Shown here: one piece after another, positions 245 through 46,629 of the stretch
Position numbering within the stretch: position 1 is the first letter of the stretch
Layout: every line of letters begins with the position of its first letter
NCBI GenBank assembly: GCA_964650515.1
Contig: CAZYUB010000006.1
Location: 13,858-77,857, forward strand
Length of the DNA stretch: 64,000 nucleotides
Direction of reading: 5' to 3'
Source: an uncultured Planctomycetia bacterium
Lineage (GTDB): Bacteria; Omnitrophota; Gorgyraeia; Pluralincolimonadales; Pluralincolimonadaceae
Translations under genes and position numbers: made by a program
The notes under the pieces: generated by a model
What the model saw: the letters and a program-made list of their open reading frames with translations, nothing else
Databases searched by the model: none
Told to the model about the DNA's origin: nothing

Positions 245-246
245 GG

Positions 247-7889: not shown

Positions 7890-8518
7890 TATCCCATATC
7901 CGCGGAAAGATCGCGAAGCGCAAGCCGTCGTCGCTCATCCTCGACGTGGACGGCGGTTTTTCATACGAAGTGCTTATACCCGGCTGCGTCATGAAGGCGA
8001 TAGACGGAAGCACAGCCCCCGACGGGACTGTCAAGCTGATAACATACCATTACCACCATACCGACCCCGCACGCAGCATACCCGTCCTCATAGGTTTCCT
8101 CAACGAGATAGAGAAGGAATTCTTCGAAAAGTTCATAACAGTTTCCGGCATAGGGCCGAAGGCCGCCGTCAAGGCGCTCAACGCGTCAATACCTCAGGTG
8201 GTCAAGGCGATAGCCGACGGCGACCTCTCCACTCTGAAGTCCCTGCCGGGGATAGGAGAGCAGAGGGCGAAGGAGATAGTCGCGAAACTGCAGAACAAGG
8301 TAGGGAAGTTCGGCCTCATACGCGAATACGGCATAGAGGTCACGGTATCGAAGGCGCAGGATTTTGTCGAGGAGGCGGTCGATGTCCTGCTGCAGCTGCA
8401 GTATACGAAGCAGGAAGCGAAGGATATGGTCCAGAAAGCGCTGCAGCGTTCCCCGAAGATAGATACCGCAGAGGACCTCTTGAACGAGGTATACAAGAAT
8501 AAGAAGGGCGCGAAATGA
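7886..8518 (+). CDS. ruvA: Holliday junction DNA helicase RuvA.
   Basis: [32 protein letters not shown]… is RuvA. The start overlaps the ruvC stop (ATGA). Confidence 0.85.
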
Positions 8519-18191: not shown

Positions 18192-18223
18192 TACTTCCTC
18201 CTTAATGTATTATTGAGTGTATA

Positions 18224-20888: not shown

Positions 20889-21364
20889 AGAATAAGGCGG
20901 TCTATCCCGGGACTTTCGACCCGGTCACATTCGGCCATATCGACCTGATAAAAAGGGCCTTAAAGATCTTTGATACCGTCATAATCGCCGTCGCGCATAA
21001 CGCGGACAAGGCGCCGCTCTTCGGCGTCGGGGAGCGTATAGCGATGCTGAGGCAGGCGACCAAGGGCATGAAGGGCGTCGTCATAGAGAGCTTCGACGGG
21101 CTCGCGGTCGATTACGTCAGGAGGAAGGGCTCCGTCGTAATGGTCCGCGGCCTCAGGATGCTTTCGGACTTCGAATACGAGTTCCAGATGGCGCTGACGA
21201 ACAGGAAGCTCGGACAGGATATCGAGACGATATTCATGATGCCTTCGGAATCCTACTCATACCTTTCATCAAAACTCATCAAGGAGGCGTTCGCGCTCGG
21301 CGCAGACGTGAAGGACTTTGTCCCGCCGTTCGTCGCCAAGGCGCTCGCGAAAAAACTAAGATGA
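20885..21364 (+). CDS. coaD: Phosphopantetheine adenylyltransferase.
   Basis: AVYPGTFDPVTFGHIDLIKRA is the CoaD HxGH motif. Confidence 0.9.
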   Translation: MKNKAVYPGTFDPVTFGHIDLIKRALKIFDTVIIAVAHNADKAPLFGVGERIAMLRQATKGMKGVVIESFDGLAVDYVRRKGSVVMVRGLRMLSDFEYEFQMALTNRKLGQDIETIFMMPSESYSYLSSKLIKEAFALGADVKDFVPPFVAKALAKKLR

Positions 21365-21807
21365 AGATAAAAGTAAACGACATCCCGAAGGACGGCATCA
21401 CGCTGGAAGAGAAGCGGGACGCCGCGGCGCTTGACCTTGCGCGCGACGACCTTAAGTTCGTGACCCCCGTAGCCCTTTCGGCGTTCCTGACACGCGATAA
21501 GGACGACGTTTACGCGCACGTGAAGGCGAGCGGGCGCATAGAGGCGGTCTGCGGCAGGTGCCTCGCGGCGTATACGATAGATTTCGACAAGGAATTCGAT
21601 TTCAGTTATGATGTGAAGGGCAAGACCACCCTCGACTTGACGGACGACATAAGGGCGGAGATAATCCTCGAGTACCCGATCAAGCCGCTTTGCAGGGAGA
21701 ACTGCAAGGGGCTGTGCCAGGTGTGCGGCAAGAACCTTAACGAAGGCGATTGCGGGCACATGCCTGACGCGCAAAAATGGAACGAAGCGAAAAAGAACGG
21801 TAATTAA
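21361..21807 (+). CDS. yceD: YceD/DUF177 family protein (large-subunit accumulation factor).
   Basis: CxxC…CxxC at the C-terminus. Lies immediately upstream of rpmF, the conserved yceD-rpmF-plsX synteny. Confidence 0.75.
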   Translation: MKIKVNDIPKDGITLEEKRDAAALDLARDDLKFVTPVALSAFLTRDKDDVYAHVKASGRIEAVCGRCLAAYTIDFDKEFDFSYDVKGKTTLDLTDDIRAEIILEYPIKPLCRENCKGLCQVCGKNLNEGDCGHMPDAQKWNEAKKNGN

Positions 21808-30481: not shown

Positions 30482-32059
30482 TTGGCAGAAGTCCCGCTCA
30501 GCAGTACCAGAGAGAAGATCCCTTTTACCTCAAGCATAAACTTCAGGTTCATCCTCATATTCATCCTGCTCGTTACCGTGACGACCTTCCTCAGCGGAAT
30601 GATACTTATATACCAGGGCCAGAGGTCGCTCGAGGACGCCGTCCTCAAGAAGAACCTGACCGCGTGCGAGAACGTCCGCAGCAGGATAGAGAGTTTCATC
30701 CAGGAAGCCAGGTCATCCGTCGAGCTTATGACGATGATGCCGGGGATAAAAGACCTCGACCTGTTCCAGATAGACAAGATGATGTACGAGGTCATATCGG
30801 AGCATGAGCGGCTCGACCCGGTGGCGGTCCTGAACGACCAGGGCATCATGATATCCTCGCGCAATCCTTCCGACCAGAACAAGGACATGTCCGGCAGCGA
30901 CCTTTTCCTGAAGACCAAGAGCAAGAGCTATATCTCGGACATATATTTTTCCTCCGACGGCCAGCCGTTGATAACCATCGCGGCGCCGATATTCGATTAC
31001 GACAGTTTCGGTAGGAGGATAGGCGTGCTTGTGACGGCCGTAAAGCTGCGCAGCCTCTGGCCTACTCTCGACAGGACCAAGGTCGGAGAGAAGGGCGTGA
31101 TAGTGGTTACGGACAGGAAAGGCGAGCTGGTCTACAGGTCCGGGGAAGCGAAGACGGGCAACGTCGGCAGTGACAGGACCGTGAAACTCGCGCTTGAAGG
31201 AAAGACAGGCAGCGTTAATTACGGCAACATGCTGAGTTCATACATGCCGCTTACGGGTACGGTCACCGGTTCCGTAGTCGTGAAGCAGCCGGCGCAGGAA
31301 GCCCTTTACGGCGTAGCTAAGATGAGGGGCCAATCGATGGTCCTGCTCGTGCTGAGCATTATGGTCGCTATCGCGATAGGCCTCGTGCTGTCGAACAGCA
31401 TGCTCGTCTCGGTCAGGAAGCTCCTTGTCGGCACGAAGATAGTCGCCGAGGGCGACCTCGGTTATAAGATAGACATAAAGACGGATGACGAGATCGGCGA
31501 GCTCGCGAGGTCGTTCAACGTGATGACCGTCGAACTCAAAAAGCAAAGGGAGAGGGCGATAACCGACGAGCTCACGCATCTCTACACGCATTCGTATTTC
31601 CTCGAGACGCTGAAGGCGGAGGTCTACAGGGCAAAGAGGTACAGGGCAAAGCTTTCCCTGATGATGCTCGACATCGACCACTTCAAGTTGTTCAACGACA
31701 ATTACGGGCACCAGGTCGGCGATGAGGTGCTTATCAGGATATCCGAGATGCTGAAATCGAGCCTCAGGGAATCCGATGTCGCGTCAAGGTACGGCGGCGA
31801 GGAACTCGTCGTGCTTGCGGCCGAGACCGACAAGGAAGGCATATACATACTCGCCGAGAGGGTGCGCAAGAAGATCGCCGAGGACGTTATCGTCGAGCAC
31901 GAGGACAAGAAGCTCAAGGTCACGGTCAGTATCGGCGTCACGACCCTTACCGAGGACGACATCAAGAGGGACATATTCCCCGACGACTTCCTGAAGCGGG
32001 TCGATATGGCGCTCTATAAGGCAAAGGACAAGGGAAGAAATTGCGTCGTACAGCTTTAG
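30482..32059 (+). CDS. Sensor diguanylate cyclase (periplasmic Cache-like domain, HAMP, GGDEF with a GGEEL active site).
   Basis: An N-terminal TM, a ~250-aa loop, then a second TM; HAMP; DIDHFKLFND…RYGGEELVV. TTG start at 30482 with a G-rich RBS. Confidence 0.8.
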   Translation: MAEVPLSSTREKIPFTSSINFRFILIFILLVTVTTFLSGMILIYQGQRSLEDAVLKKNLTACENVRSRIESFIQEARSSVELMTMMPGIKDLDLFQIDKMMYEVISEHERLDPVAVLNDQGIMISSRNPSDQNKDMSGSDLFLKTKSKSYISDIYFSSDGQPLITIAAPIFDYDSFGRRIGVLVTAVKLRSLWPTLDRTKVGEKGVIVVTDRKGELVYRSGEAKTGNVGSDRTVKLALEGKTGSVNYGNMLSSYMPLTGTVTGSVVVKQPAQEALYGVAKMRGQSMVLLVLSIMVAIAIGLVLSNSMLVSVRKLLVGTKIVAEGDLGYKIDIKTDDEIGELARSFNVMTVELKKQRERAITDELTHLYTHSYFLETLKAEVYRAKRYRAKLSLMMLDIDHFKLFNDNYGHQVGDEVLIRISEMLKSSLRESDVASRYGGEELVVLAAETDKEGIYILAERVRKKIAEDVIVEHEDKKLKVTVSIGVTTLTEDDIKRDIFPDDFLKRVDMALYKAKDKGRNCVVQL

Positions 32060-33273
32060 CATTAGCCGCGTTCATAGCGGTTGCTGCATTCCTGTCCGCG
32101 GAGGTGCTGGTCCGCGAGAGGGCCCTGAAGAAGCCCGAGACGATACAGAATATCGCCTTCACCAAAGGGACGACGGTGTATTTCGACGAATCCGGACGGC
32201 TGCAATTCGCGAGCCTCGGCGCCGACCAGCAGGTCATGGGCATCAGGTTCGCGAAAAGCACGTCCGTCTATTTTGACGGTTCCGGAAGGATCGAGTATGC
32301 GTACCTCGCAGCCGACCAACAGGTACTCGGATTGGACGTAAAGAGAGGGACCTCGGTATATTTCACGAAGAGTGGCAGGCTGGATTATATTATAGTCACG
32401 GGTGACGAGCAGATAGGCGGCCTGCTTTGCGCCAAGGGCTCAAAGGCGGGTTTCTATGAGTCGGGTAAACTCCGTTATGCCACGCTCGGCAAGGACCAGA
32501 TGGTCCAGGGTATAACCTGCGCGAAGGGCTCGATAGCGGGTTTCTATGAGTCGGGTAAACTCCAGCACGGGATATTATCCGGCGATTCGTGTGTGCAGGA
32601 TATAATGTTCGCGAAGGGCACCTACCTTCTTTTTTATGAGACGGGCAGCATAAAGAGCGCGTACCTGGTTGCGCCCACCGAGATAATGGGTATTGTCTGC
32701 GCGAACGGCCCGAGCGCGAGTTTTTACGAGAACGGGAAACTTGACTGGGCCGTCCTCGCGAACGTAAGCGAGGTCCAGGGGATATCCTGCGCGAAGGGCT
32801 CGACGATAGGGTTTTATAACACCGGCAGGCTGCAGTATGCCACGCTGTCGTACGAACAGGATATCGACGGCATCACCTGCGCTAAAGGCACGAAGGCCGG
32901 TTTTTACCAGTCAGGCAAACTCCAGTTCGCGACCCTTGCGTCAGACCAGCAGGTTTTCGGGGTCCCGTGCGCAAAAGGAACGGTAGCGGGCCTGTATGAG
33001 AACGGCAAGCTCCAGTATGCGACCCTAAACGCCGACAGGGAGATAAACGGCATACCCTGCGCGAAGGGAACGAAGGTCGATTTTTATGAGTCCGGAAACC
33101 TGCAGAACGCCACGTTGTCCAAGGACCATAAGATAGGGAAGACCGATTGTCCTAAAGGAGCGGTCGTCGGTATACGCGAATCCGGCACGCTCAAGTACCT
33201 GATATCCGGAGGATCGAAGGTGAGCTTCGACGAGAACGGAAACCGGAGAGATACCGAAAAGACCGCGGATTAA
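32041..33273 (+). CDS. Secreted tandem-repeat protein (MORN-variant/YwqK-like 23-aa repeats, ~15 copies).
   Basis: Signal peptide, then repeats with consensus CAKG(T/S)xAGFYESGKLQYATLxxDQxVxGI. TTG start overlapping the GGDEF gene 3' end. Confidence 0.6.
   Translation: MRRTALALAAFIAVAAFLSAEVLVRERALKKPETIQNIAFTKGTTVYFDESGRLQFASLGADQQVMGIRFAKSTSVYFDGSGRIEYAYLAADQQVLGLDVKRGTSVYFTKSGRLDYIIVTGDEQIGGLLCAKGSKAGFYESGKLRYATLGKDQMVQGITCAKGSIAGFYESGKLQHGILSGDSCVQDIMFAKGTYLLFYETGSIKSAYLVAPTEIMGIVCANGPSASFYENGKLDWAVLANVSEVQGISCAKGSTIGFYNTGRLQYATLSYEQDIDGITCAKGTKAGFYQSGKLQFATLASDQQVFGVPCAKGTVAGLYENGKLQYATLNADREINGIPCAKGTKVDFYESGNLQNATLSKDHKIGKTDCPKGAVVGIRESGTLKYLISGGSKVSFDENGNRRDTEKTAD
32150..33230. repeat. 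Intragenic tandem array of ~69-bp units encoding the 23-aa repeat. Some copies carry 28-bp exact identity.
   Basis: gcgggtttctatgagtcgggtaaactcc occurs identically at ~32441 and ~32543. Confidence 0.6.
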
Positions 33274-33312: not shown

Positions 33313-33341
33313 TTGACGGCCTTCCGTACGAGTAATACAAT
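33313..33341 (+). promoter_or_regulatory. Sigma70-like promoter, TTGACG-17-TACAAT.
   Basis: TTGACG at 33313-18 and TACAAT at 33336-41. An RBS GGAAGGAGAG lies upstream of the ATG at 33374. Confidence 0.5.
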
Positions 33342-33373: not shown

Positions 33374-33568
33374 ATGGACACAGGCACGAAGTACATAACT
33401 ATGGATGAGGTCACGAATTACTTAAGCCTCAGCGAGGGAAGTATCCGTAAGCTTATACGGGAACAGAGCTTTCCGCATGTTAAGGTCCTGAGAAAGTACC
33501 TGTTCAATAGGCAGGATATCGATGAGTGGCTTAAGATGCATTCGCAGGGCCTCAGGGCGAAAAAGTAG
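33374..33568 (+). CDS. Small HTH DNA-binding protein (excisionase/MerR-like HTH_17 family).
   Basis: 64 aa. ITMDEVTNYLSLSEGSIRKLIREQSFP is a helix-turn-helix. No adjacent integrase. Confidence 0.6.
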   Translation: MDTGTKYITMDEVTNYLSLSEGSIRKLIREQSFPHVKVLRKYLFNRQDIDEWLKMHSQGLRAKK

Positions 33569-33592: not shown

Positions 33593-36500
33593 ATGCTAAG
33601 CCAAAATTGCAGTAAATATGTTATATCCATATCTATCGCGCTCGCGATATCATTCCCTTCGATATCGTGTTCCGGCGGCGAGGAGTTAGATTACAATAAA
33701 CTTTCGCTTGAAGCCGCGCTGAACATTATGTATGAGATAGACCCCGAAATACAGTCAAGTAAACTTGCCGTAGATTCCGCCCATCTCGAGATAAGGGCGA
33801 GGAAACTTGATACGTTCCTCCCGAAGATAAGCGCGGGCGCCACGCTTGTAAAACCGGTAAACGTCTTCTCCTCGCTTGAGCAGCAAAAGGAGATGTTCTT
33901 TGAGCAGCAGCTCGTAATAGAATTCGCCGTTACTTCTGACAGCCTGAAACAAATTGCCAGGGAAAGGAAGAATTACGAAACAAGCATGCTCGAGCTGAAA
34001 CAGGACATATCTATCAAGAGCCGCAGGCTGATCGCCGTATATTACGCGGTCGCCAGGGCGCAGGAAAACTACAGGTCAAGCTGCGATAATGTCGAGACGA
34101 TCGAGAAATATTTAAAGGAAGTGGAGAACAGCAATGAATATTCGGAAGTGGAGAAGTTCGAACTGAAGAACTATCTCGGGGTAGTGATCGAGGAAAAATT
34201 GGGGGCGTTGAACACGCTTATCAATACGAGAAGGGACCTTCGCGGGCTTCTCGGGCTTGAGGACAGGGAAGACATCATAATAACGGTCGAGGAACTCCCG
34301 GATAACATAAACAAGGACGCGGCTTTTGCGGAAAACCCGTTCATCAGGCCGGTAGACTATACGATGGACATATACAAGAAAAGGGAGGAAGCGGCTGGCA
34401 TCGCCGCTCGTATCAGCGCGTCGCCCCTGTTGGGGCTTTCGTCCTCGACTATCTTCGGAATAGGCGAAGGTAAAGGGACGAAGTTCCAGAAGAAGGCGAT
34501 AACGGATACCCAGGTGGAATTATTCTTAACCGACTTCGGCTATACCGCGGGGTTGAATAATGCCGGAAGGATCGGGTCGCAGATAGCCCGGCTCGAGCTG
34601 CTGAAGGCCGAGGAGGACCTGGAATACGCGGACCGCATAACGAGCGATAAGCTCTCCGAGCTGAGCGCGCTTATAGATAATTACAGGGATTATATAACCA
34701 AGACCGAAGATACTTTCAGGATGTTCAAGGAGCGGCTGTCCCTGCCTGTTATCGAGATAATAAGGATGAACGATAACATATATAAAGCGAGGTACGCGCT
34801 GCAGCAGGCGCTCGTTGATTATACGGTCATGCTGTCCAAGCTTAACGGTGTCGAATTGAAGCCGGAGCAGTCGAGCCCGCAGTACCAGGATATGGGCCTT
34901 GAGGACCTTTTGGCAAGGGGAGAGAGGAGCGATATCCTTACCGCAAAGCGGGTAGCCGAAAATAAGCTCAGGATGGAGAACGTCAGGGTCAAGGCCATGA
35001 AGGCGGGATACCTGCCGAAGATAACCGGGGCCGCGGTGCTTGAGAACGCCAATATAGACGGCACGCCGTACACGAACACGAGGGCTTATCTCGCGCTCGA
35101 AGCCCGCCTTTTTAACGGTAAGACCGGCCAGGCAGTGAAGGCGGCAAAGGCAGGCGCGGAGGCGGCGGGATACGAGGGGGCCGCGTTACAGAACTATGTC
35201 GCGGACGAGATAATAAGGAATTACCTGGCGATATTAAGGAACAAGAACACCTTAAAGAGACTGGAAGAGATAAAGGAGATAAAGGCCGGCATTGTCGGGC
35301 GCATGATGGAGGAGGCGCAGGGCGTAAACCCGAAATACAGCAATTCGGACATACTCCCTCTTGTCCTCCAGCAGATGGAGCTCGACAGGGTCATGGCGGA
35401 TGTGGAGTTCTCGCTGGCGGTGGTCGAATACGACCTGAAGAGATGGACAGGCATACCGCTCAACGAAAATATAAGCGTGAAGGAGCTGCCGGGTTTCGGG
35501 ACAGACGAAGGCCTCTCGAAGTTCAAGGCGCTCATCAGCTCCAGGGTGGCGCCGTATTTCGACGGCAAGGCCCCGGTCAAACAGGCCTTCAGCGCGGTCG
35601 AGAAGAACAGGGCCGGGGAGGCGCAGGCCGTCGCGTACGAAGGCGCGCTCTTAAATGTGAAATACGAGACGAAGGGGGCGGATTATTACGGATGGAAGAA
35701 CCCGGACAAGCAGTTGTCTTTCAGCGTCTCCGTGCCGTGGGGCGACCGCCGGGAGCGGCTGGCACAGTCGGACGCTTCAAGGGCGCGCATCAGGTCCGAG
35801 ATAGAGTATATAAAAAGCATGGATGAGTATGAAAAGGAAAGGCTGGCCGTAAAGACCGCTTATGACGCTTCGAAGGAGCTTATCGAGAACCTGCGCAGCA
35901 AGATGGAGAACATGGAGTCGCAGTACCGCATAACGGACGAGCTTTACAGGTTCGGCGGCAGGACGCAGAGGCAGATGGTCGACGCGAAGCTGGATTATAC
36001 CGTGGCCTGCATGAGCTATGAGGAAGCGGTCCTTGACAACTATTACCATAACGCGAGGGAGATACTGATTGTAGAGAAGGACGCGGGGCCCGAAGGCGGC
36101 GAGAAGATACTTCTGTCAGGGCTGCAGGAAGCGATAGACATGGCGCTGGAGAACAGCCGGCAGGTCAGGAAATACGAAGAGTTGCTCGAACTGGAGAAGG
36201 AGACGCTCAAGTACTACAAGACGTTCAGGGTGAAAGGTGACATTATCGAGAAGTACTACAGGATAGACAATAAGGGTTGGGAAAAACAGAAGGACCTGCT
36301 TACGACAGGTGCCGTAACGACCGTTGAAGCGGACCTTGTGAATAAATTTATGAGCAAGAGGCAGCAGCGAAGGATCGAACTGGCGGAAAAGGACGTGGTC
36401 CAGGCGAAGTTCGACCTTACCCTGAAGGTCGCGGACGCGTATTCCGATTACCTCGGCTCCCTGGCCGAAGCGTCTGAAGTCGAGGCGGAATATGAAAAGC

Positions 36501-37408
36501 AGAAGACGGTCCTCGCGGAGATGGAAGAGCTGTTCAGGGCAAAGGCGATAGCGCATGTCGACCTCTTAAAGCAGAGGGAGTTCGTCGAGAGCATGTATCA
36601 GAAATATATAGACATCAACAGGTATACCGAAGGATACAGGAACAACCTCGGTATAGCGGTCGGAGGCCTCGATCCGCGGTTCTCGATAGTGAATACCGAG
36701 GTCTACGACAAGTCCGCCAAACGAGTCGCCCTTACCGGGGATTTTGAGATTAAGCAGAGGTTATTGGACGAGCTGACCGCGGCGAGGCAGTCGCTGCAGG
36801 GTCCGTTGACGGACGACCTGCTGGAACGCGCGGAAATCGATATAAGCATGGCCAGGCTCGATACCGAAGCCATATCAAAACAGATCAAGACGCTTGCGAT
36901 AAACCTCGAGTATAATTACCTTACCGATTATATGGGATTATTGACCAAGGATGAGGCCGCTTTCTCGCGTTATGATAACATGTCGGAATTTATCTCGCTG
37001 AACTCGATGGACAAGATATTTGATCCCGTGACCGGCACGAAAGCGAGAGTCGCCGCAATAAAGGAGAAGGTGGCGGCGTTGAGGTCTAAATCATACACGA
37101 AGGACGTGGTCCAGGACGCGTTGAGGAGGTTTACAGATTACCAGATAGCCGTTGCCGACTACGGGAACTACGAAAAGCACGAGTCGGCGCTGGAAAAAGA
37201 GATGTCAGAGAAGATGCGTATAGAAGAGGCGGCCGGAGAGACGGCCCTGATCAGGCAAAGGGAGCTGAAAGAGACGGTGCTTAACAACAAGATCAATAAG
37301 ATACAGGCGTTCTACCGCATGATGAAATTTATGAACGAGCTTGACCGTTATCTGATAAGATATACGTCAAAGGGGATAGAATCATACGTAACGTTCACGG
37401 ATAAATGA
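33593..37408 (+). CDS. Giant TolC-like outer-membrane efflux lipoprotein (1271 aa, internally duplicated OEP-like modules).
   Basis: Lipoprotein-type signal (…SFPSISCSG). An OEP N-terminal signature LSLEAALNIMYEIDPEIQ, and a second one at LSGLQEAIDMALENSRQVRK (~36110). Extended coiled-coil content. Confidence 0.6.
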   Translation: MLSQNCSKYVISISIALAISFPSISCSGGEELDYNKLSLEAALNIMYEIDPEIQSSKLAVDSAHLEIRARKLDTFLPKISAGATLVKPVNVFSSLEQQKEMFFEQQLVIEFAVTSDSLKQIARERKNYETSMLELKQDISIKSRRLIAVYYAVARAQENYRSSCDNVETIEKYLKEVENSNEYSEVEKFELKNYLGVVIEEKLGALNTLINTRRDLRGLLGLEDREDIIITVEELPDNINKDAAFAENPFIRPVDYTMDIYKKREEAAGIAARISASPLLGLSSSTIFGIGEGKGTKFQKKAITDTQVELFLTDFGYTAGLNNAGRIGSQIARLELLKAEEDLEYADRITSDKLSELSALIDNYRDYITKTEDTFRMFKERLSLPVIEIIRMNDNIYKARYALQQALVDYTVMLSKLNGVELKPEQSSPQYQDMGLEDLLARGERSDILTAKRVAENKLRMENVRVKAMKAGYLPKITGAAVLENANIDGTPYTNTRAYLALEARLFNGKTGQAVKAAKAGAEAAGYEGAALQNYVADEIIRNYLAILRNKNTLKRLEEIKEIKAGIVGRMMEEAQGVNPKYSNSDILPLVLQQMELDRVMADVEFSLAVVEYDLKRWTGIPLNENISVKELPGFGTDEGLSKFKALISSRVAPYFDGKAPVKQAFSAVEKNRAGEAQAVAYEGALLNVKYETKGADYYGWKNPDKQLSFSVSVPWGDRRERLAQSDASRARIRSEIEYIKSMDEYEKERLAVKTAYDASKELIENLRSKMENMESQYRITDELYRFGGRTQRQMVDAKLDYTVACMSYEEAVLDNYYHNAREILIVEKDAGPEGGEKILLSGLQEAIDMALENSRQVRKYEELLELEKETLKYYKTFRVKGDIIEKYYRIDNKGWEKQKDLLTTGAVTTVEADLVNKFMSKRQQRRIELAEKDVVQAKFDLTLKVADAYSDYLGSLAEASEVEAEYEKQKTVLAEMEELFRAKAIAHVDLLKQREFVESMYQKYIDINRYTEGYRNNLGIAVGGLDPRFSIVNTEVYDKSAKRVALTGDFEIKQRLLDELTAARQSLQGPLTDDLLERAEIDISMARLDTEAISKQIKTLAINLEYNYLTDYMGLLTKDEAAFSRYDNMSEFISLNSMDKIFDPVTGTKARVAAIKEKVAALRSKSYTKDVVQDALRRFTDYQIAVADYGNYEKHESALEKEMSEKMRIEEAAGETALIRQRELKETVLNNKINKIQAFYRMMKFMNELDRYLIRYTSKGIESYVTFTDK

Positions 37409-40400
37409 GCGGGGACATGTTAATAAGAGCAAGAAAGATATTTGTCATACTCATAGCGGCGGCGGCCGTCCTTTTCACGGCGCGTTCATGTGTGCGCCGT
37501 CTCCCGGATGCGGATGACGCAGCCGGCAAGCAGCGGCCCGCTGCAGCCGATGCCGCGCGCGCCGGGAACCCTCTCGACCATCCGGCGCAGAGAGATACCG
37601 CGATAAACGCGGGTGAGCTCGTATCCTTCATCCTGGAATGGTCGAACCCTGAGACCGGCCTCGTCCCGACAATGATATCGAAGAGCGGCACGAAGAACCC
37701 TTTCGCGGACATGACCTACTCTTACGCGCAGGCGGTCGCCCACCAGAATCTCTTGATGGCCGGGCAAACGGACATTTCCTTGAAAGCCGCGGAAGTGTTA
37801 AGGCAGAGAGGCGAGGCGCGCGACATCCCGAACGGGCTTAATACGCGCACCGGGTTAAGCGAGGACCCCCTGATAACAGCCGGGCCGAACGCGTACTGGG
37901 GCATAAGTTTCATCAGGGAGTACAGGTTGGCAGGCGACGAGAAGTGGCTGGTTGCAGCTAAGCGGCGCGCGGATTTCCTGCTGAAACTGCAGGCGGATAA
38001 CGGCGGCATACGCAAGAGCCCTTACCAGGGCAATATAGAATACGAGGCGAAATCCACCGAGGAGAACCTCGATTGTTACGCGCTGTTCGACCTGCTGTCG
38101 CAGCTCACGGGTGAGGAGAAGTACGCCACGGCAAGATCAAGGATACTCGGCTGGCTCTCCGCGAGCGGTGTGTACAACAAGGATGCGGGGTATTTTACGG
38201 CCGGCACATCCAAGGACGCCGTGAATCCCATTTATGCTACCGACGCGAACGCGCTCGCAATAATCATACTCGGCCCTGAGCTGCTCGATTCCGAAGGCGA
38301 GGTCCGGTTCGGCGGGGCCGGAACAAGCCGCAGGATATTGGACAGCCTTGATGCGGCCAGGGTGAAAGTGGATTATCTCCACCCGTCCGGCATCACTGTA
38401 AAAGACCTAGAAGGGTTCGATTTTACCGATAAGCTCGGCAGGCCCGGCAGGAAACCCGTCCTGAGCCCCGAGTTCACTTCCCAGGCGGTGCTGGCATATC
38501 TGGTGATGGCGAGGCATGCGAAAGAAAAAGGCGATGTCGAATATTCGGCCAAGCTTATAGAAGACGCGCGCCGTTATCTCGATAACCTCGGAAGGATGGC
38601 AGCGCGCACAGGGAAGTCGGCGTCCCTGCCTTATGCCTCGGAGAAAGGGATAAGGCGTTATCCCTTCGACAACTGGCTGACGCCTCAGGGAGACGCGGAT
38701 ATATCGGCGACATGGGCGTCGTTCCCGCTGTCGGGGTTCAACCCGTTTGCGCTTGAAGGGTTCGGGCTGCGAGATGCGATGAAGGATTCCGCGGAATGGA
38801 TGTCCGATACAGGCGAAGCCATAAAGCCGGAAAAATCTTTTGTTGTCCCCGAACCGGAGAAGATCGTGTCGGAAGCCGAGCTCATCGCCCAGCAGGAAGC
38901 GGCAAGGGAAGAGGCGATGAGGAAGCCGATCGTGTATTATAAGGTCCTTTACGACCAGGTCAATAAGGACGCGACTATCGCGAGAAGGAGGGTGATAGCC
39001 GTCCTGATGACAAGCTACAATTGCTGGTTCGACGGCGTGCTGGATACGGCGTCGCGGGACTATGACGTGATCGGCGTCGACGGAAATTACAAGGTCTTCT
39101 ATAAGAGATTCCAGGACCTTCCCGAAGCTACGAGGAAGGCCGTGCAATCGGAATATTCCTATCTTGACGAGTCTACGGGTATCAAATGGAGGATGGCCCC
39201 TAAGTACAATTTGAGCCTCGACGGGCAGTATAAGCCGTATTACGCCTTCGAGATGGACGGCGATTACAACATAATCAGGCAGTTCGCGTCCGAGAGCGAC
39301 GTCCCTGAAGAGAACAGGGCCGACCTGAAGAACGTAAAAGCCCAGTTCCAGTCCTCCAGCGGCCTTCCCGAAGGCCACCTCATAGCGAGGTATTTCACCG
39401 CGCTCGAGGTGGACAGCGAGATGAATATAATGGACTATTACGAAGCGATAGACGACCTTCCGGGCCTCGTCTCCAAAGTCCCGATTAGCGAAGATGAGTT
39501 CAGGAGGTATACCAAGGCGAAGGACTGGGAGAGGCAGGACCTGGTCTCCGCCGGCATCATCCCCGATGAAAAAGGCCTGCTTGCCGTCCAGGAGAGAGGC
39601 ATATATTATGCAAAGGTCCTCGGCCTCGATGAGACAAGGAGGCTGCGCGTAGGCGGCGTCTCCGTAGCCAGCGGACGCGAGATAATCATGGGAACCAGGT
39701 TCAGCCTGACGAACTGGCGCATCGGGGAGGCATCGAAGACGAACGCCGTCAAATATGAAATAGGGCTCATAAAGGGCATGGTCATAAAGCCGCGCGAACA
39801 GTTCAGCGGAAGCGGCCCATCGCCGACACAGCCGCTTTGGATATACCTCGGGGAAGACATGATCGCCTCAGAGACCGCGGAATTCAAGAGGAGGCTCCTG
39901 GACCTGCTGAAGCGCATCAAATCGGAGAAGGACGCGCAGACGCGCCTAGAGCTCGTGGAACAATACGACCGGCTGGCCGGAGAGCTCGCCTGGTACGACG
40001 AGAACGGGCTCATTCATGTCATCTATTACGGCGCAAAAGCCGCCGAGAAGAGGTTCGGGGATTTCGCATCTGCGAAGGCAAGGGCGGAGAACAGCCTGAG
40101 GACCTACGAATCGATCCTGGGCAGGGACCAGCTCGGGCGGGACCTGCGCGATTCATACGGGCGCGTCTGGCTTAAGGTAATAAACGAGGCGACCGGCCGC
40201 ATATTATACGTCGAAGTCTATGATATGGCGGGAAACCTCGAGACGATATATTCCGGGGAGATCGATATCGACCCGCTCACTAAAGAGGTCAGGTCCGAAA
40301 TAAGGACCGACCTCGAATACGACAAGGATACCCTGCAGGTCGTCGGCAGCCACACATACCGCACCGATGAGAACGGGGACTGGGTCTCCGACATATCCGA

Positions 40401-43400
40401 GAGCATATTCAAGGGGTATACGCCCGACAAGAAGTATTTCGTTTCGGAGGTGCATATATTCGAGAGGGGCGAGGACGGCAGGATAATATTCGAGGACGGG
40501 AAAGCCAGGTATACGAAGAAGATAGAATATTACACGCCGGAAGGCGATATATCGGCCCAGATGGTGAAGAACATAATAACTATAGTCAGGTACGGCGCCA
40601 ACCGTGAGGTCGTGAAAGAGGTCTTCCTCGAGCGGCCGGGCAAGACCCTGACAGGGGAGAACACGGACCTCGATAACCTGACGCAGGGCCTTGCGTGGGT
40701 CCGCAGGTACAAGACGACAGGCAAGATATTGACCTTCAAGGACGCGCTCGTGAAGTCCCTGACATCGCTGCCCGAAGAAGACAGGGAAACGACCGCGTTG
40801 CTGATATTGAACAGGCTCGGCGCGGAGAAGGTAGGCAGGATCAGCGATACGCTTATGCTGGAAGAGAACGAGGTCACGAACAACCTTACCGGCGACCCGG
40901 CCGCGCCCGGAGAGGCGCCCTATTTCGTGTTCTACGAACCGGGCGACAGTTTGGGCCGGCAAAGGCTCATAGTGCGCGGCGGCACGATGGAGGTCCCCGT
41001 CGACTGGATACCCGAGGCCGATATACCTTCGAAGACGCTCACGTTCAACCTTGCCGGCGAGCTGGTCTCGATAAGCGACGTCGACAGCTCTGTCCGAGCG
41101 GATTCAGTACTGCCTCCCGGATACATAGAGAGGGTGGCGCCGCTCGGCATCAACGCCGATACGTTGCTGCCCCAGATGAAGAAGAGGATATTCAGGATGG
41201 TGACCGGCGATGACGGCCTGCCGCATTTCACGAATACGGTGGCCATTACGACGGTCAGCTACATGATACCCGACGACGTGCTCGGCAGGGAGCTCCTGAA
41301 CGTCAAGTTCGTCATGCTCGGGGACGAGACGACGCTCCACAACGGCAGCACGCTTAAGCTCAAGCGCAATATATTCGGCAAGGACACGCTTATCGAGTCG
41401 TGGAAGGACGAGAGGGGCGAGGCCCGCACCCGGGCAATAGCTAAGAAAGAGGATACCGTAGTATATGAATGGTATAAGGAGGGCCTCGACGCCGGCGAGC
41501 TGCGCGAGCGCCTGAAGTCCGAATGCGGCAAGCTCGTGAAACGCGAAATACTGGAGGAGGCGCTCGTGAACGTCGCGGAGTCGCCGTTCGGCACGATGCC
41601 GGGCTACCACGTGATAAAGCCGAACGGGCGTATAGGCGAGATCAAGTATTTCTCCGGCACCGTCGAATACCCGCGCAGCGTCTTCAGCCATGCCGGGGTA
41701 AAGGTGCCTTATGAATCGGAAGCGCCGCCGTTCAAGCTCCCGGACGGGCCCGCGATAAGAGGAGTGAAATACGGCGTGTTGAACTCAGATTACGCGTTCT
41801 ACGACGTGCATTCGCTCAGCGGTCAGCTGATAGTACTCGAACGCCGTTTCATAATCCTGCGCCTCATGAACATACTGCCGGTGCAGGGCGGCAGGCAGAC
41901 GGAATATTATGACCCGCTCGTCCCGTATTCATACCTGAGGCCGATAAAGATAGAAAGGGATTTCAGGCCCGGCACTCAACCCGAGGGCACGCAGCCGGGC
42001 ACCCAGATCGTCGCGGTCTTCATCGGCGACGCGAGCATCTACCATCGTAACGGGTGGCAGACCCAGACGTTCCTCGAGAGGAGGCCGTTCGATATAGAGC
42101 ACTGGATACGCTCTGATTACGAGTTCGACGATAACGGCGTATATAAGTTCAAGAAAGAGCATATCGAAAGCAGCTCGATATACCTTATGAGGTCTATCGA
42201 ATGGCAGAAGCCGCTCGCGTTCTTCGCGCTTGTGGCAGGACTCTTCTTCCTTGCCGGCTATGTCTCGCGCAGGAGGCTTAGGGCCGGAAGGGAATCCAGG
42301 ATCAACGCCGCATGCGCGGCCTCAAGGCCGTTCAGCAGGGAAATGCTCGCGCGGCTCTCAGTGCCCGAAGAGCTGAAAGCCGCATGCATAAAGGTATATG
42401 AAGGGCGTGAGCCGGCATCGGGGCTCTTCGCCGCATCCGAAAAGGTCTTCAGGCCAAGGATCGAGGAATGCCTGCGCGGTTTCGGGGCCGACCCGGCCGA
42501 GCATACGGCGAGCGTTAACGTCCTGCTGGACAGGATCGCGTGCCGTCTCGGCAGGGAGGAGATAAATTTAAGCAACCTGTTTGCGGCCGAAGCGAAAGAG
42601 TTCGTGGAATGGTCGAAGAGGAACGGTCATTCCGTCAGCATCGCCGCGGGCAAGACCGGAACGGATGACCTGTCGTTAATAGTCCTGTTCAGGCTTGTAT
42701 TCGACGAGTCGATGGAATTCAGGGCAGCCGTTACCGGCTTCAGGTATTATCTCTTCGATAAGTCGCTCGTCCTGCTCGCCGCGGGCAGGAAAGGCGATAT
42801 ACTGCGCGAGATACGCGGCGATACTCTCGCTTTCCTCGAGGCACTGAGGCCCGGTTATGACAAGAAACTGGGGCTAATAAAGGAATATATTTTTACATAT
42901 GACGACATGAACGAGCTTTTTGAGGGCAAGAGGCCCGGGTTCATCGCCTCATTTGCCCGGCTGGAGGGAAAGACCGCCGCGCAGAAACTCTCCTGGCTCG
43001 CGTCGAAGGCGGGCAAGGATGCCGCCGCCGACGTGATGTCATATAAGAGCTACGCATGGCTTAAGACGTTCCCCGATAAGGCCGGCGTCCCGCAGTTCGT
43101 CTCAAACCTTAGGCGTTTCTGGGGATTCCTCGTGCCTATGTTCGCGGCCGTGACTTTGGGCGGTGTCGCTATAGCGCTGAAACGCATACCGTTCGCCCAA
43201 CGCCTCGAAGGCGCGATGGGACCTGTAGGGGCCGCATTCGTCGAGGTAACGGCCCTAATACTCATAGGCCTTGTCATAACAATGGCTTTCATGAAAGGCA
43301 CCTTAGGCGATTACAAGCCGGCGCCGAAGGGCGCGGCAGGGAATAAGGAGCTCAGGCGGTCGATACGGCTGTTCTGGATAATGTACGGCTCGGCCTCTTA

Positions 43401-46400
43401 CCTCTGGGGCCTCTTCAGCATATTCGTGATAATCTGGACCGTCAGGATCATAAGCAAGCTCACGTTCGTGAACGCCGGATGGGGCCTGTTCATCAACGCG
43501 AGCGCGCTGCTGCTTACGTTCACGTTCATACTGTCGAGCTTCTTCTCGCTCTTCTATATCATAATAGCGTTGATAGGGTTCTACCGCGGCAAGAGGGAAG
43601 GCGTAGGCCAGGTCATATCATGGATCCAGATGAGGAGGAAGTTCGAGGCCTCAAAGCGTCGTTTTGGGCAGGTCATCGCGCCGGCCGAAACGCTATGGAG
43701 GTCATATTGGAATCTGATGATAAAAGAGCTTTACGATTATTATGTCATCAGCGCTCCGGAGAGGGATGCCCTCTCGTATTCCGAGAAAAATACAGCGCCG
43801 AAACTCGAGGGGCTACCGCGCGCAGATGAGGCCTCCGAAAGGATGCGCCTCTATGTCAACAGCTGGCTCATGGAGATGCCGAAGGCGTGCTCCTGGAACG
43901 ACCTGCCGACGTTCACTGCGATGGTGACGGCGTTCAATGAACCGGTCAGCTTCTCGTTCGATGAGCTCAACGGCTGCGACAGGGGCGCCGAAGTCACGAG
44001 GCTCAACCACCTGATCGGGTTCTACAGGCCGCAGTGGGAAGAGTTCGTCGGCCGGCTCGATACCGCCGACCTCGGGCAGTATATCACGAGGGAGCAACTG
44101 AAGCTGCTCTTCGGCCTGAAGAAACTGCCCGAAGGGTTGCCGGAACAGCTGAAGGAGAAGATCAGGAAATGGGCAAACCTCACGGTCCAGTGCGTCGAGA
44201 AAACGGCCGTGGAGGTATACAGGATACGCGATGCCTTTGCCGCCTATGCCGGGGCGTGCTATCCCGGCGCGTCCGCCGCGGACATAGAGGAGCTCGTATC
44301 CCGCAAGGTCCAGATACTGCTTAATTACGAGGGGTTCCACAGCCCTGCGACCCGCGATTACGACAGGGAGTCCCTGAAGAGGCTCATGAAAGAGCTTCCG
44401 CGGTTGGATGTCTATTGGGCGGCGGCAGAGGGCGACGATAAGGGCCTCGACCGCGGGCTCCACCGCTATAACCCGGCGACGGACGGCATCGAGCTTATAG
44501 AGACCGCGCCGTTCACCGCTACGGTAAAGAAAGGCAAGCCGAGCGGCCTGAACCAGGCGCTGCCGTTCGTGAAGGGCGAGACGGTCCTCTTCTTCGACGC
44601 GAACTGCTCGGTCAGGATAGAGGATGCCCTGAAACTTCCCGTCGCGCTTTCCGAGTTCGCGGACGACCCGTCGCTCGGAGAGGTCCTGTTCGCCGAGTAC
44701 ATATTCAACAAGAACTATTCATGGATCTCGCAGGCGATAGGTTTCAACGAGGAGACATTCGTCTCGGTAACGCAGAGGACGTTGAATATCTTCCAGGCCT
44801 GCGGTTTTTACGGCCACAGCGCGATAATAAAGACGGACATGATCACCGCGGCCTGCGGCCTGCCGCAGGATTATATATCCGAGGATATACTGCTGGCCAC
44901 GGCATTGTGGAAGAAGGGGCTGAAGACCTCGCATAAGGAATACCTGACTTTCGGCAAGGGCAGGGAGACATCGTATTTTACGAGTTTAGTGCCGCTGACG
45001 AAATGGGCAATGGGCTCCTCCGACGCCGCGATAGGCCGCGTCATGCGCGGCATACTCGACTCGCGGAATATCCATGTCGCGCAGAAGTTCATGCTGATGT
45101 TCGGGTTCTCGTTCTTCTACCAGACCCCGCTGATGTTCGTGATAAATTTCCTTTACCTGTGGCTTATGATCTGCTGGGGCATAAACGGTTTCATGGCGGT
45201 CCCGTACCCGATCGTCTTCGGCATCCTCGGCCTGCTCTTCAACCAGGCGATAACAGCTACCGGCGTCGCGTATCTCGTGGAGCATTACGGCTTCAGGAGG
45301 TCCTTCTCCGCATACATGAAGCTTGTCGCGAAGAACCACTTCTTCTACGCGTCGGTCATACCCGCGTACGCGTTCGGTTTCCTCGCGGGCCTGAAGGGAA
45401 AGGCGGTCTTCATCATAAGCCCGAAGGGATGGAACCTCGGCCACCTGCCCCTGAAAGTAATATGGGGGGAGAAGAGGGCAATACTGAAGGCGGCATTATT
45501 CAGCACGATGGTGGGCCTCCCGCTTGCGTACCTGCTTGTGTCGGCCGAGATGGTCCCTTTATGGATAAGCCCGTTCATACCGTTCCTGCCGTTCGCCGTC
45601 GTGGCGGCGATGTACGCGGCGGGCCTCGAATGGAAAAAGACGGGCTTGGGTTTCCTGAAGGACTGGCGCGACGAGATCGTCCCCGACGGGGATATCCGCA
45701 AGATGTCCGTGATAAAACTGCAGATGATCTACGCGATGGTGCTGCTCGTCTTCACAGGGGTCGGCTTCGTCATGTGGGGCCTCATATTCTCGTCGCTGGC
45801 GGTCAAGGCGCTGTTCATATTCTCGGTCCTTTATATAAGCACGACGATGTCGTTCATAATAATGCCGCTCTTTGCGCATTCCCAGCCGGTCGCGCTGTTC
45901 AAGGAGATAACGATATCGAAGTTCTGGAATTATGCGGCGATACCGGCGCTGTTCGCGAGCATCGTTTTCGGCGCTGCCTCTATCTTATCGAGCCCGGCTA
46001 CGGCTTCGCCCGAATCGGTCGTCTATACGCTTCTCGGCATATCGTTGCTTGTCGGATGGGCGCTGCTTAAATGGAAACTCAGCGGGTACGCGAGGCTTGA
46101 CAGGTGGCTAAAGCAGAACCTGGCCGGGTACGCCGGCGCGCCCGCGTACCGTAAAGCAGACCTGATGGATGACGTATACTTCGCGCACCAGGAGCTGATA
46201 CAGGGCGACAGGCAGGAGGAGTTGAGATATAAAAGGAAAGCCGGGAAGGCCAAGGCGGTGTTCGTGTTCACGCTGTCTGCCGCGCTGCTGATGTATTTCG
46301 CGTCGGAATTCTACCCGAGGTTATTCAGAAACTGGATATGGCTCCTGATAGCGGCCGAGGCGGTCTATTTGCTGATACTCAACGTCGAGCACACGAAAGA

Positions 46401-46629
46401 CGACAGGATATACCTCGGCAAGCTCTACGGCGGGATAATTATAAATGACTTCAACAGGCTCAACGAAAATGTCAGGGCCATGGAAGATATCTGGAAGAAA
46501 CTGGACAGGGTATACAAGGCCAGGCTCGTCAGGATCTACGAGGACGAATTAAGGGCCAAGAGGGCGATGACCGTTTACATGTCCAGGTGCATCAGGTCTT
46601 GGGAGGCGGGGCAGCAGAGGCCTACCTAG
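37405..46629 (+). CDS. Giant (3074 aa) multi-domain membrane polysaccharide synthase-like protein. It combines an N-terminal (alpha/alpha)6 glycosidase-like domain, a long central region, and a C-terminal polytopic GT2-type processive glycosyltransferase core.
   Basis: The start overlaps the TolC-like stop (ATGA). GT2 motifs: KPSGLNQALPFVKGETVLFFDAN (K-G-LN-AL…FDAD-like, ~44533), ISEDILLATALWKKGLK (TED-like, ~44876), and LTKWAMG (degenerate QxxRW, ~44995). Over 20 predicted TM helices flank the core. Confidence 0.6.
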   Translation: MSGDMLIRARKIFVILIAAAAVLFTARSCVRRLPDADDAAGKQRPAAADAARAGNPLDHPAQRDTAINAGELVSFILEWSNPETGLVPTMISKSGTKNPFADMTYSYAQAVAHQNLLMAGQTDISLKAAEVLRQRGEARDIPNGLNTRTGLSEDPLITAGPNAYWGISFIREYRLAGDEKWLVAAKRRADFLLKLQADNGGIRKSPYQGNIEYEAKSTEENLDCYALFDLLSQLTGEEKYATARSRILGWLSASGVYNKDAGYFTAGTSKDAVNPIYATDANALAIIILGPELLDSEGEVRFGGAGTSRRILDSLDAARVKVDYLHPSGITVKDLEGFDFTDKLGRPGRKPVLSPEFTSQAVLAYLVMARHAKEKGDVEYSAKLIEDARRYLDNLGRMAARTGKSASLPYASEKGIRRYPFDNWLTPQGDADISATWASFPLSGFNPFALEGFGLRDAMKDSAEWMSDTGEAIKPEKSFVVPEPEKIVSEAELIAQQEAAREEAMRKPIVYYKVLYDQVNKDATIARRRVIAVLMTSYNCWFDGVLDTASRDYDVIGVDGNYKVFYKRFQDLPEATRKAVQSEYSYLDESTGIKWRMAPKYNLSLDGQYKPYYAFEMDGDYNIIRQFASESDVPEENRADLKNVKAQFQSSSGLPEGHLIARYFTALEVDSEMNIMDYYEAIDDLPGLVSKVPISEDEFRRYTKAKDWERQDLVSAGIIPDEKGLLAVQERGIYYAKVLGLDETRRLRVGGVSVASGREIIMGTRFSLTNWRIGEASKTNAVKYEIGLIKGMVIKPREQFSGSGPSPTQPLWIYLGEDMIASETAEFKRRLLDLLKRIKSEKDAQTRLELVEQYDRLAGELAWYDENGLIHVIYYGAKAAEKRFGDFASAKARAENSLRTYESILGRDQLGRDLRDSYGRVWLKVINEATGRILYVEVYDMAGNLETIYSGEIDIDPLTKEVRSEIRTDLEYDKDTLQVVGSHTYRTDENGDWVSDISESIFKGYTPDKKYFVSEVHIFERGEDGRIIFEDGKARYTKKIEYYTPEGDISAQMVKNIITIVRYGANREVVKEVFLERPGKTLTGENTDLDNLTQGLAWVRRYKTTGKILTFKDALVKSLTSLPEEDRETTALLILNRLGAEKVGRISDTLMLEENEVTNNLTGDPAAPGEAPYFVFYEPGDSLGRQRLIVRGGTMEVPVDWIPEADIPSKTLTFNLAGELVSISDVDSSVRADSVLPPGYIERVAPLGINADTLLPQMKKRIFRMVTGDDGLPHFTNTVAITTVSYMIPDDVLGRELLNVKFVMLGDETTLHNGSTLKLKRNIFGKDTLIESWKDERGEARTRAIAKKEDTVVYEWYKEGLDAGELRERLKSECGKLVKREILEEALVNVAESPFGTMPGYHVIKPNGRIGEIKYFSGTVEYPRSVFSHAGVKVPYESEAPPFKLPDGPAIRGVKYGVLNSDYAFYDVHSLSGQLIVLERRFIILRLMNILPVQGGRQTEYYDPLVPYSYLRPIKIERDFRPGTQPEGTQPGTQIVAVFIGDASIYHRNGWQTQTFLERRPFDIEHWIRSDYEFDDNGVYKFKKEHIESSSIYLMRSIEWQKPLAFFALVAGLFFLAGYVSRRRLRAGRESRINAACAASRPFSREMLARLSVPEELKAACIKVYEGREPASGLFAASEKVFRPRIEECLRGFGADPAEHTASVNVLLDRIACRLGREEINLSNLFAAEAKEFVEWSKRNGHSVSIAAGKTGTDDLSLIVLFRLVFDESMEFRAAVTGFRYYLFDKSLVLLAAGRKGDILREIRGDTLAFLEALRPGYDKKLGLIKEYIFTYDDMNELFEGKRPGFIASFARLEGKTAAQKLSWLASKAGKDAAADVMSYKSYAWLKTFPDKAGVPQFVSNLRRFWGFLVPMFAAVTLGGVAIALKRIPFAQRLEGAMGPVGAAFVEVTALILIGLVITMAFMKGTLGDYKPAPKGAAGNKELRRSIRLFWIMYGSASYLWGLFSIFVIIWTVRIISKLTFVNAGWGLFINASALLLTFTFILSSFFSLFYIIIALIGFYRGKREGVGQVISWIQMRRKFEASKRRFGQVIAPAETLWRSYWNLMIKELYDYYVISAPERDALSYSEKNTAPKLEGLPRADEASERMRLYVNSWLMEMPKACSWNDLPTFTAMVTAFNEPVSFSFDELNGCDRGAEVTRLNHLIGFYRPQWEEFVGRLDTADLGQYITREQLKLLFGLKKLPEGLPEQLKEKIRKWANLTVQCVEKTAVEVYRIRDAFAAYAGACYPGASAADIEELVSRKVQILLNYEGFHSPATRDYDRESLKRLMKELPRLDVYWAAAEGDDKGLDRGLHRYNPATDGIELIETAPFTATVKKGKPSGLNQALPFVKGETVLFFDANCSVRIEDALKLPVALSEFADDPSLGEVLFAEYIFNKNYSWISQAIGFNEETFVSVTQRTLNIFQACGFYGHSAIIKTDMITAACGLPQDYISEDILLATALWKKGLKTSHKEYLTFGKGRETSYFTSLVPLTKWAMGSSDAAIGRVMRGILDSRNIHVAQKFMLMFGFSFFYQTPLMFVINFLYLWLMICWGINGFMAVPYPIVFGILGLLFNQAITATGVAYLVEHYGFRRSFSAYMKLVAKNHFFYASVIPAYAFGFLAGLKGKAVFIISPKGWNLGHLPLKVIWGEKRAILKAALFSTMVGLPLAYLLVSAEMVPLWISPFIPFLPFAVVAAMYAAGLEWKKTGLGFLKDWRDEIVPDGDIRKMSVIKLQMIYAMVLLVFTGVGFVMWGLIFSSLAVKALFIFSVLYISTTMSFIIMPLFAHSQPVALFKEITISKFWNYAAIPALFASIVFGAASILSSPATASPESVVYTLLGISLLVGWALLKWKLSGYARLDRWLKQNLAGYAGAPAYRKADLMDDVYFAHQELIQGDRQEELRYKRKAGKAKAVFVFTLSAALLMYFASEFYPRLFRNWIWLLIAAEAVYLLILNVEHTKDDRIYLGKLYGGIIINDFNRLNENVRAMEDIWKKLDRVYKARLVRIYEDELRAKRAMTVYMSRCIRSWEAGQQRPT

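Follow-up and report, generated by a model that had tools for sequence, protein, structure and literature searches.

A TolC-family protein with three protomer equivalents in one chain, encoded next to a giant FKS1/GT48-like synthase

TolC channels are the textbook example of a barrel made from three identical chains, and the opening of their entrance, the docking of a hexameric adaptor, and BAM assembly are all understood on the assumption of threefold symmetry. What, then, is to be made of a TolC-like protein of 1271 residues, encoded directly before a putative glucan synthase of 3074 residues? The gene for this protein, which we call the long OEP, occupies positions 33593..37408 on the + strand of a 64,000-nucleotide stretch of contig CAZYUB010000006.1 (assembly GCA_964650515.1), referred to below as the window. 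The initial annotation, made from the letters and their open reading frames (ORFs), saw in it a duplicated OEP signature separated by an extended coiled coil and proposed that the protein could form an elongated periplasmic tunnel matched to the giant synthase. We find that the chain very probably comprises three protomer equivalents in a tunnel of normal length. The explanation of the whole that we favor, with less assurance, is that this chain folds on its own into a pseudo-trimeric TolC duct that is coupled to the synthase and exports its glucan.

Three protomer equivalents and their predicted fold

The reading frame, 1271 codons plus a stop, is genuine, and its product is TolC-like: Pfam PF02321 (OEP) matches it in five stretches with 68.5 bits against a cutoff of 22 (E value 9e-19), a score that contradicts the proviso of the initial annotation that the motifs might turn out to be chance matches within generic coiled coil. 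P0012, a distant member of the family, matches the same model at an E value of 2e-40. No NCBIfam model matches the 1271-residue protein, and the homologs go by the plain name "TolC family protein" in the databases. The long OEP shares its OEP repeats and its signal peptide with Escherichia coli TolC and the other outer membrane factors (OMFs; OprM, CusC, VceC, CmeC, and MtrE; PF02321, TCDB 1.B.17); the Sec signal peptide, as read directly from the sequence, comprises residues 1–26 (33593..33670, + strand) of the N terminus MLSQNCSKYVISISIALAISFPSISC. Cys26 may look like part of a lipobox, an assignment that is doubtful because this cysteine is not conserved across the family; a comparison of N termini shows, for example, that the homolog P0005 has no cysteine at that position.

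When the protein was split into six pieces of ~210 residues and each was scanned against Pfam OEP, pieces 1–5 matched at residues 39–183, 268–418, 455–560, 687–813, and 846–996. Since two OEP repeats make up a normal TolC protomer, the chain amounts to three protomer equivalents, in contrast to known OMFs, in which one polypeptide of ~430–500 residues is one homotrimerizing protomer with two repeats. The N-terminal OEP motif also occurs three times, at residues 37, 433, and 841. Both copies quoted in the initial annotation, LSLEAALNIMYEIDPEIQ at residues 37–54 and LSGLQEAIDMALENSRQVRK at residues 841–860, are present, and to this extent the reported duplication stands; the third, DMGLEDLLARGERSDILTAK at residues 433–452, had been overlooked, and the signature is in fact triplicated at the level of the protomer, with six repeats (R1–R6) overall. 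The interval between the two quoted motifs, far from being an extended coiled coil, holds the rest of the first unit, a complete second TolC-like unit, and four β hairpins.

Each of the three units, all on the + strand, is one protomer equivalent. Unit 1 (R1 and R2) covers residues 30–432 (33680..34888); unit 2 (R3 and R4), which begins with the OEP motif DMGLEDLLARGERSDIL, covers residues 433–842 (34889..36118); and unit 3 (R5 and R6) covers residues 843–1271 (36119..37405). The first two Pfam OEP matches listed above fall in unit 1, the next two in unit 2, and the last in R5 of unit 3. Using unit profiles that include distant family members supplied by a HMMER scan (see below) and a reference profile of four ordinary TolC proteins (446–491 residues), hhalign aligned all three thirds to ordinary TolCs end to end, with a probability of 98.1 (P = 9e-14; columns 4–382 against 27–457 of 464) for unit 1, 95.3 (P = 2e-8) for unit 2, and 89.8 (P = 1.8e-6) for unit 3. 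The corresponding scores are 107, 69, and 56, against ~18 (P ~0.25) for reversed-sequence controls. When the units are aligned with each other, they are collinear, odd repeats pairing with odd and even with even, as would be expected if a two-repeat protomer were present three times. The linkers between units have lengths that are fixed throughout the family: 20 residues in one case and 12–16 residues between units 2 and 3.

These relationships are distant. Self-BLASTP of the 1271-residue protein found no internal repeats; hhalign between the thirds with a shallow eight-sequence profile returned nothing, the signal appearing only once distant members had been added; and no OMF turned up when the PDB was searched by sequence, whether with the family profile or with one unit at a time. 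The link to solved TolCs is visible at the level of profile and fold only. None of the units is decaying, and all three are equally conserved: the mean pairwise identity among eight distant members is 0.32 for unit 1, 0.31 for unit 2, and 0.33 for unit 3.

An AlphaFold2 (AF2) model was made of the single chain from residue 53 to residue 1252, a range that retains all barrel helices, with 16 family sequences as input; its mean predicted local distance difference test score (pLDDT) is 83.3, and its predicted template modeling score (pTM) is 0.76. As assigned by DSSP, the model repeats one module six times, consisting of an up-helix, a β hairpin, a long helix, and a return helix. The up-helices have 15–24 residues, except for 44 in repeat 6; the long helices of repeats 1–6 have 62, 64, 67, 66, 66, and 68 residues; and the six return helices have 30–37. 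The strands of hairpin 1 are assigned to residues 78–114 (33824..33934), those of hairpin 2 to 280–313 (34430..34531), of hairpin 3 to 476–506 (35018..35110), of hairpin 4 to 685–717 (35645..35743), of hairpin 5 to 878–914 (36224..36334), and of hairpin 6, which has a long external loop of low confidence, to 1100–1143 (36890..37021), all on the + strand. R6 is the most divergent of the six repeats, and its hairpin and 68-residue helix are still modeled. Two such modules correspond to the OMF protomer fold, with its two hairpins, two long helices of ~67 residues, and four half-length helices, which is thus predicted three times over. The predicted inventory of six hairpins, or 12 strands, and 12 tunnel-forming helical columns equals that of a full TolC trimer.

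Helices H3 and H7 of TolC reportedly comprise 67 residues. Because the long helices of the model match this value at 62–68 residues, the predicted duct is of ordinary TolC dimensions and not elongated, the additional length of the polypeptide being accounted for by three protomer equivalents in series. The top 39 Foldseek matches in the PDB are all OMF protomers (TolC 1ek9, OprM, CusC, VceC, CmeC, MtrE, SilC, and ST50), each aligned over ~430 columns with a TM-score of 0.6–0.71 per target and ~0.27 per query; every OMF match therefore covers about one-third of the chain, and Foldseek found no solved chain in the PDB that matches the whole 1271-residue protein. Between them, AF2 and Foldseek predict both a β-barrel part and an α-barrel part, in keeping with the TolC-like identity first proposed. 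That the barrel closes within a single chain is suggested by the high pTM of this model together with the inter-unit linkers.

In ordinary OMFs, a VG-x-x-x-(I)-(T/V)-D motif recurs at the helix tips, the place where the adaptor is contacted. In the long OEP, the six periplasmic tips all differ in signature, and every signature is conserved in the family: DPxYSELE at tip 1, ERVxLPV at tip 2, GxxPKY at tip 3, GARTxR at tip 4, SGAITxxD at tip 5, and GKLxV at tip 6. Because all six differ yet stay conserved, the entrance to the duct appears to be built non-symmetric. The long OEP thus departs from known OMFs in having three protomers fused into one chain, units that are only 12–15% identical, six tips that are all different, and, as described next, a glycosyltransferase in place of an adaptor and pump as its partner.

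A conserved pairing with a giant synthase

The family is rare. A HMMER scan of 1.84 billion representatives yielded 13 hits, ~7 of them full-length lineages (1266–1369 residues, 27–38% identity to the window protein), with ordinary TolCs surfacing only marginally; a second homology search, made with a diverse alignment, missed the distant members. The seven loci in the genome collection all come from uncultured metagenome-assembled genomes (MAGs), six labelled Candidatus Omnitrophota and one labelled Planctomycetia. A misassembly or an artefactual gene fusion was considered and rejected, since the unbroken long ORF recurs in many independent assemblies. In one pair of homologs, P0002 and P0004, the last ~280 residues of the long OEP are 100% identical and the remainder only 66–85% identical, a pattern that suggests either recombination between lineages within the gene or a chimeric assembly.

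At every locus with a readable flank, the gene that follows the long OEP encodes a protein of 3035–3170 residues with a Pfam Glucan_synthase domain. Relatives with as little as 27% identity preserve this order, the pairing is seen whether the search begins from the duct or from the synthase, and the OEP family is found only where the synthase family is found. In the window, the synthase gene (37405..46629, + strand) overlaps the end of the OEP gene by 4 nucleotides, stop over start; the same overlap is present in the near clade and at loci L014 and L020 (P0008 and P0009), and in the remaining distant loci the two genes lie within 35 nucleotides of each other. They appear to be translationally coupled and co-inherited, and the tie to the giant synthase that the initial annotation had proposed is borne out.

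In the 3074-residue synthase, Pfam Glucan_synthase matches residues 2138–2587 (E value 1e-23), besides weak matches to Glyco_trans_2_3 and CelA. Among solved structures, the chains of yeast FKS1 match residues 2133–2545 at an E value of 1e-10 and BcsA less well, at 6e-6; the catalytic domain appears to be FKS1/GT48-like rather than BcsA-like, with fungal FKS1 and the plant callose synthases as its closest solved relatives. By hydropathy, a first transmembrane segment is followed by a domain of ~1570 residues, a second transmembrane segment, and the catalytic domain between transmembrane clusters. The ~1570-residue N-terminal domain would be periplasmic, because the glycosyltransferase domain must be cytosolic. 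FKS1 operates at a single membrane and needs no duct, whereas the bacterial synthase has this huge, presumptively periplasmic domain and an outer-membrane partner. In conservation the domain equals the catalytic domain, and the synthase as a whole is better conserved (43–56% identity) than the duct (27–36%). The N-terminal domain contains a weak GH76 match, and NCBI names the synthase homologs either "glycoside hydrolase family 76 protein" or "glycosyltransferase family 2 protein." Foldseek, run on an AF2 model of synthase residues 403–1602, found local matches to Rhs/YD-repeat shells, teneurin, and Tc-toxin BC (E value 1e-8, TM-scores <0.1), and Pfam detected no RHS repeat in the synthase. 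This region may be a β-hairpin-repeat sheet, or the matches may be noise; the likeness to Rhs/YD proteins is not trustworthy and at most a hint.

The synthase family comprises ~14 clusters, and all its members with a source name come from Omnitrophota. One protein of 5338 residues, P0039, has a Glucan_synthase domain and matches the window synthase at an E value of 2e-10; this could be an even bigger relative of the family. A literature search on GT48 in bacteria found nothing relevant.

Proposed function and competing explanations

What could a single-chain duct next to such a synthase be for? From their translational coupling and co-inheritance, export of the glucan made by the synthase is the most likely job of the long OEP, and we lean toward a function as its exit duct. 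We posit that the chain folds by itself, forming a 12-stranded outer-membrane β barrel that leads into a periplasmic tunnel of 12 helices with the normal length of TolC, and that a pseudo-trimer, its three parts having become unlike one another, in effect takes the place of the homotrimer. Such a duct would be dedicated to the adjacent FKS-like synthase and would carry the glucan, probably β-1,3-linked by analogy with the family, from that enzyme's periplasmic domain across the outer membrane. The adaptor of canonical pumps, a hexamer, serves to reconcile TolC and its partner in symmetry; in the present case, the duct would probably dock directly on the ~1570-residue domain of the synthase itself, and fusion of the protomers could have lifted the symmetry constraint, leaving the duct free to match one asymmetric partner. 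Control by cyclic di-GMP (c-di-GMP) is suggested by an adjoining gene for a dCache-HAMP-GGDEF diguanylate cyclase (30482..32059, + strand; Pfam GGDEF, E value 6e-44). The cyclase gene lies upstream of the pair in the near clade and L021; several other distant loci have it downstream. A bolder version, which we offer only tentatively, is that the asymmetric one-chain duct docks on the ~1570-residue domain of a single FKS-like synthase with no HlyD-type adaptor, the two proteins making up an envelope-spanning β-glucan secretion machine that has been found so far almost only in Omnitrophota-labelled MAGs; fusion would then have let the protomers diverge until each of the six tips fitted a different surface of the non-symmetric partner.

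TolC ducts that serve glucan synthases are already known. In Sinorhizobium meliloti, where BgsA (a GT2 protein) and the HlyD-like BgsB act with TolC in a system switched on by c-di-GMP, TolC is required for the production of a mixed-linkage β-glucan (PMC13438883); in Thermosynechococcus, the partners of a cellulose synthase are two proteins, one HlyD-like and one TolC-like (Maeda 2018, cited in PMC8892547). The gene pair resembles these systems, and the Bgs/Xcs type more generally, in that a processive, membrane-embedded glucan synthase is encoded together with a TolC-type duct, and the GGDEF gene beside it may point to a similar link to c-di-GMP. It differs from them in its components: the Bgs and cyanobacterial systems combine a GT2 synthase of the BcsA-like type with an ordinary TolC trimer and with a HlyD-type adaptor that is a protein of its own, whereas here an FKS1/GT48-like synthase of ~3070 residues, with its own putatively periplasmic ~1570-residue domain, is paired with a single-chain duct, and no separate HlyD-like adaptor is found within the window. 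The proposed role also recalls that of BcsC, AlgE-AlgK, PgaA, and PelB, through which the product of a c-di-GMP-controlled synthase of the inner membrane leaves across the outer membrane. These porins are monomeric 16–18-stranded barrels with periplasmic TPR scaffolds (see also PMC13438883); the long OEP has no Pfam matches to TPR or BcsC families, and the fold predicted for it has 12 strands and resembles TolC. We found no account of a fused or single-chain TolC in the literature searched, including the accessible portion of a survey of tripartite systems in Chemical Reviews (2021), and the Omnitrophota papers searched make no mention of TolC, a glucan synthase, or this gene pair. The fused architecture and the FKS1/GT48-like partner appear to be new.

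Other explanations have to be weighed against a glucan exporter. The long OEP could be a one-chain TolC that works as a general duct and serves an efflux pump or a type I secretion system whose genes lie elsewhere, the synthase being a mere neighbor. Proteins of the OEP family usually play this part, and ordinary OEP genes and a gene resembling a membrane fusion protein (MFP) occur near the pair in some distant loci; we nonetheless consider it unlikely, in view of the invariant pairing at all readable loci, with its overlapping or closely spaced genes, and the confinement of the OEP family to places where the synthase family occurs. Moreover, Pfam detected no HlyD/MFP, resistance-nodulation-division (RND; ACR_tran), or ATP-binding cassette (ABC) exporter among the window ORFs scanned: where a general duct would often have an adaptor and an ABC, RND, or major facilitator superfamily transporter encoded nearby, the invariant neighbor of the long OEP is a glycosyltransferase. 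The MFP-like gene of locus L015 belongs to a neighboring GT2-MFP-OEP cluster and not to the long-OEP/synthase pair.

The partnership with the synthase could also be real and yet not involve a conduit, if the long OEP were an outer-membrane anchor or strut for the N-terminal domain of the synthase and the glucan stayed in the periplasm or left by another route. The beta-rich character of that domain, its conservation on a par with the catalytic domain, and the failure to find an adaptor among the ORFs scanned would all fit such a role. We regard it as rather improbable: a complete TolC duct inventory is kept in all three units under even constraint, S. meliloti requires TolC to produce a glucan made by a synthase, and TolC is the proposed exporter both in that species and in cyanobacteria (PMC13438883 and PMC8892547).

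A third alternative concerns the assembly and not the cargo. Like units could trimerize with like (U1x3, U2x3, and U3x3), giving a domain-swapped oligomer of three tethered conventional barrels or some other higher-order pore. Every OMF studied is a homotrimer, AF2 was given a single chain only, and the units, at 12–15% identity, are each closer to ordinary TolC than to the other units. The single-chain pTM of 0.76, however, implies confident packing of the units in the model, and the fixed linker of 12–16 residues between units 2 and 3 is estimated to be too short to reach round a neighboring barrel, which makes an oligomer of this kind a poor prospect. Finally, the homotrimeric TolC with coiled coils about three times the usual length and an elongated periplasmic tunnel, which was the model of the initial annotation and is suggested by a helix-rich total of 1271 residues and by a giant synthase whose very large N-terminal domain would be periplasmic, is very improbable, because the long helices are as in TolC, six hairpins lie ~200 residues apart where two would be expected, and every third of the chain is a complete protomer equivalent onto which Foldseek fits a whole OMF protomer.

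We therefore return to the self-folding, one-chain duct that exports the glucan of its synthase, against which several points have to be set. The AF2 input was shallow, at 16 sequences, residues 1–52 and 1253–1271 lie outside the model, and both the closure of strand 1, at residues 78–88, on strand 12, at residues 1132–1143, and the packing of the units are only implied by the pTM of 0.76. A clear hydrophobic face is present on only 8 of the 12 predicted strands, in a test that discriminates weakly. The sixth piece of the chain, R6, has no Pfam OEP match, and the similarity between units, with P values of 8e-4 to 9e-3, is weak. On the side of function, we infer the glucan cargo from gene order alone; Pfam detected no PilZ or other c-di-GMP receptor domain in the synthase; and the AF2 model of synthase residues 403–1602 (38611..42210), which is beta-rich, is poor (pLDDT 56.7, pTM 0.42) and lends docking no structural support. 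An adaptor could be encoded elsewhere in the genome, the scan for one having covered the window ORFs, and all the organisms that carry the long OEP are uncultured.

If the proposed architecture is correct, a natural, single-chain TolC with three diverged parts would show that threefold symmetry is dispensable and would provide a ready-made scaffold for asymmetric mutagenesis, and it raises the question of how a 140-kDa chain of TolC fold is inserted into the outer membrane. The FKS1/GT48 family is otherwise studied in fungi and plants, and FKS1 is an antifungal target; the strict pairing of a bacterial FKS1/GT48-like synthase with the long OEP points to a new coupling of polysaccharide synthesis to outer-membrane export, in a compact, two-gene system where the hand-over from synthase to duct could be probed directly.

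Genomic neighborhood and minor observations

Directly upstream of the long OEP lies an ORF for a small HTH_17 protein of 64 residues (33374..33568, + strand), which also precedes the long OEP in L001–L005 and in L014, where the OEP is 38% identical to that of the window. A sigma-70-like site, a consensus match only, is present at 33313–33341. The HTH_17 protein may be a dedicated regulator and its gene the first of the operon. Between the GGDEF and HTH_17 genes, 32041..33273 (+ strand) encodes a secreted protein of 410 residues with ~14 MORN-variant-like repeats of the approximate consensus CAKGTxAGFYESGKLQYATL; it is present in the near clade, and L021 has an unannotated gene of similar size at the same position.

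Among the distant loci, L019 has a GH16 (laminarinase-type) gene near the pair (7477..8394), and L022 has genes for a phosphoglucomutase (18214..19614) and a PilZ protein (21352..21411); these neighbors fit a β-glucan pathway under c-di-GMP control. In a distant clade (L015, 3606..9681; L022, 323..1504), a separate cluster sits beside the long-OEP/GT48 pair and comprises a 510-residue GT2 protein, an MFP-like protein with a faint match to BSH_CzcB, two genes of unknown type, and an ordinary OEP of 393–423 residues. It looks like a canonical, Bgs-type tripartite system next to an adaptor-free one.

Two further proteins of ~1545 residues, P0020 and P0024, consist of a full AcrB-type RND transporter (residues 4–1023) followed by a C-terminal, two-repeat OEP; if the gene calls are correct, this would be an inner-membrane pump fused to an OMF, with a puzzling topology. 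Elsewhere in the window, a 420-residue ORF (61..1323) with no family match precedes an ORF of 1020 residues (1325..4387, + strand), in which only CBM_4_9 (E value 1e-5) and, weakly, T2SSK are matched.

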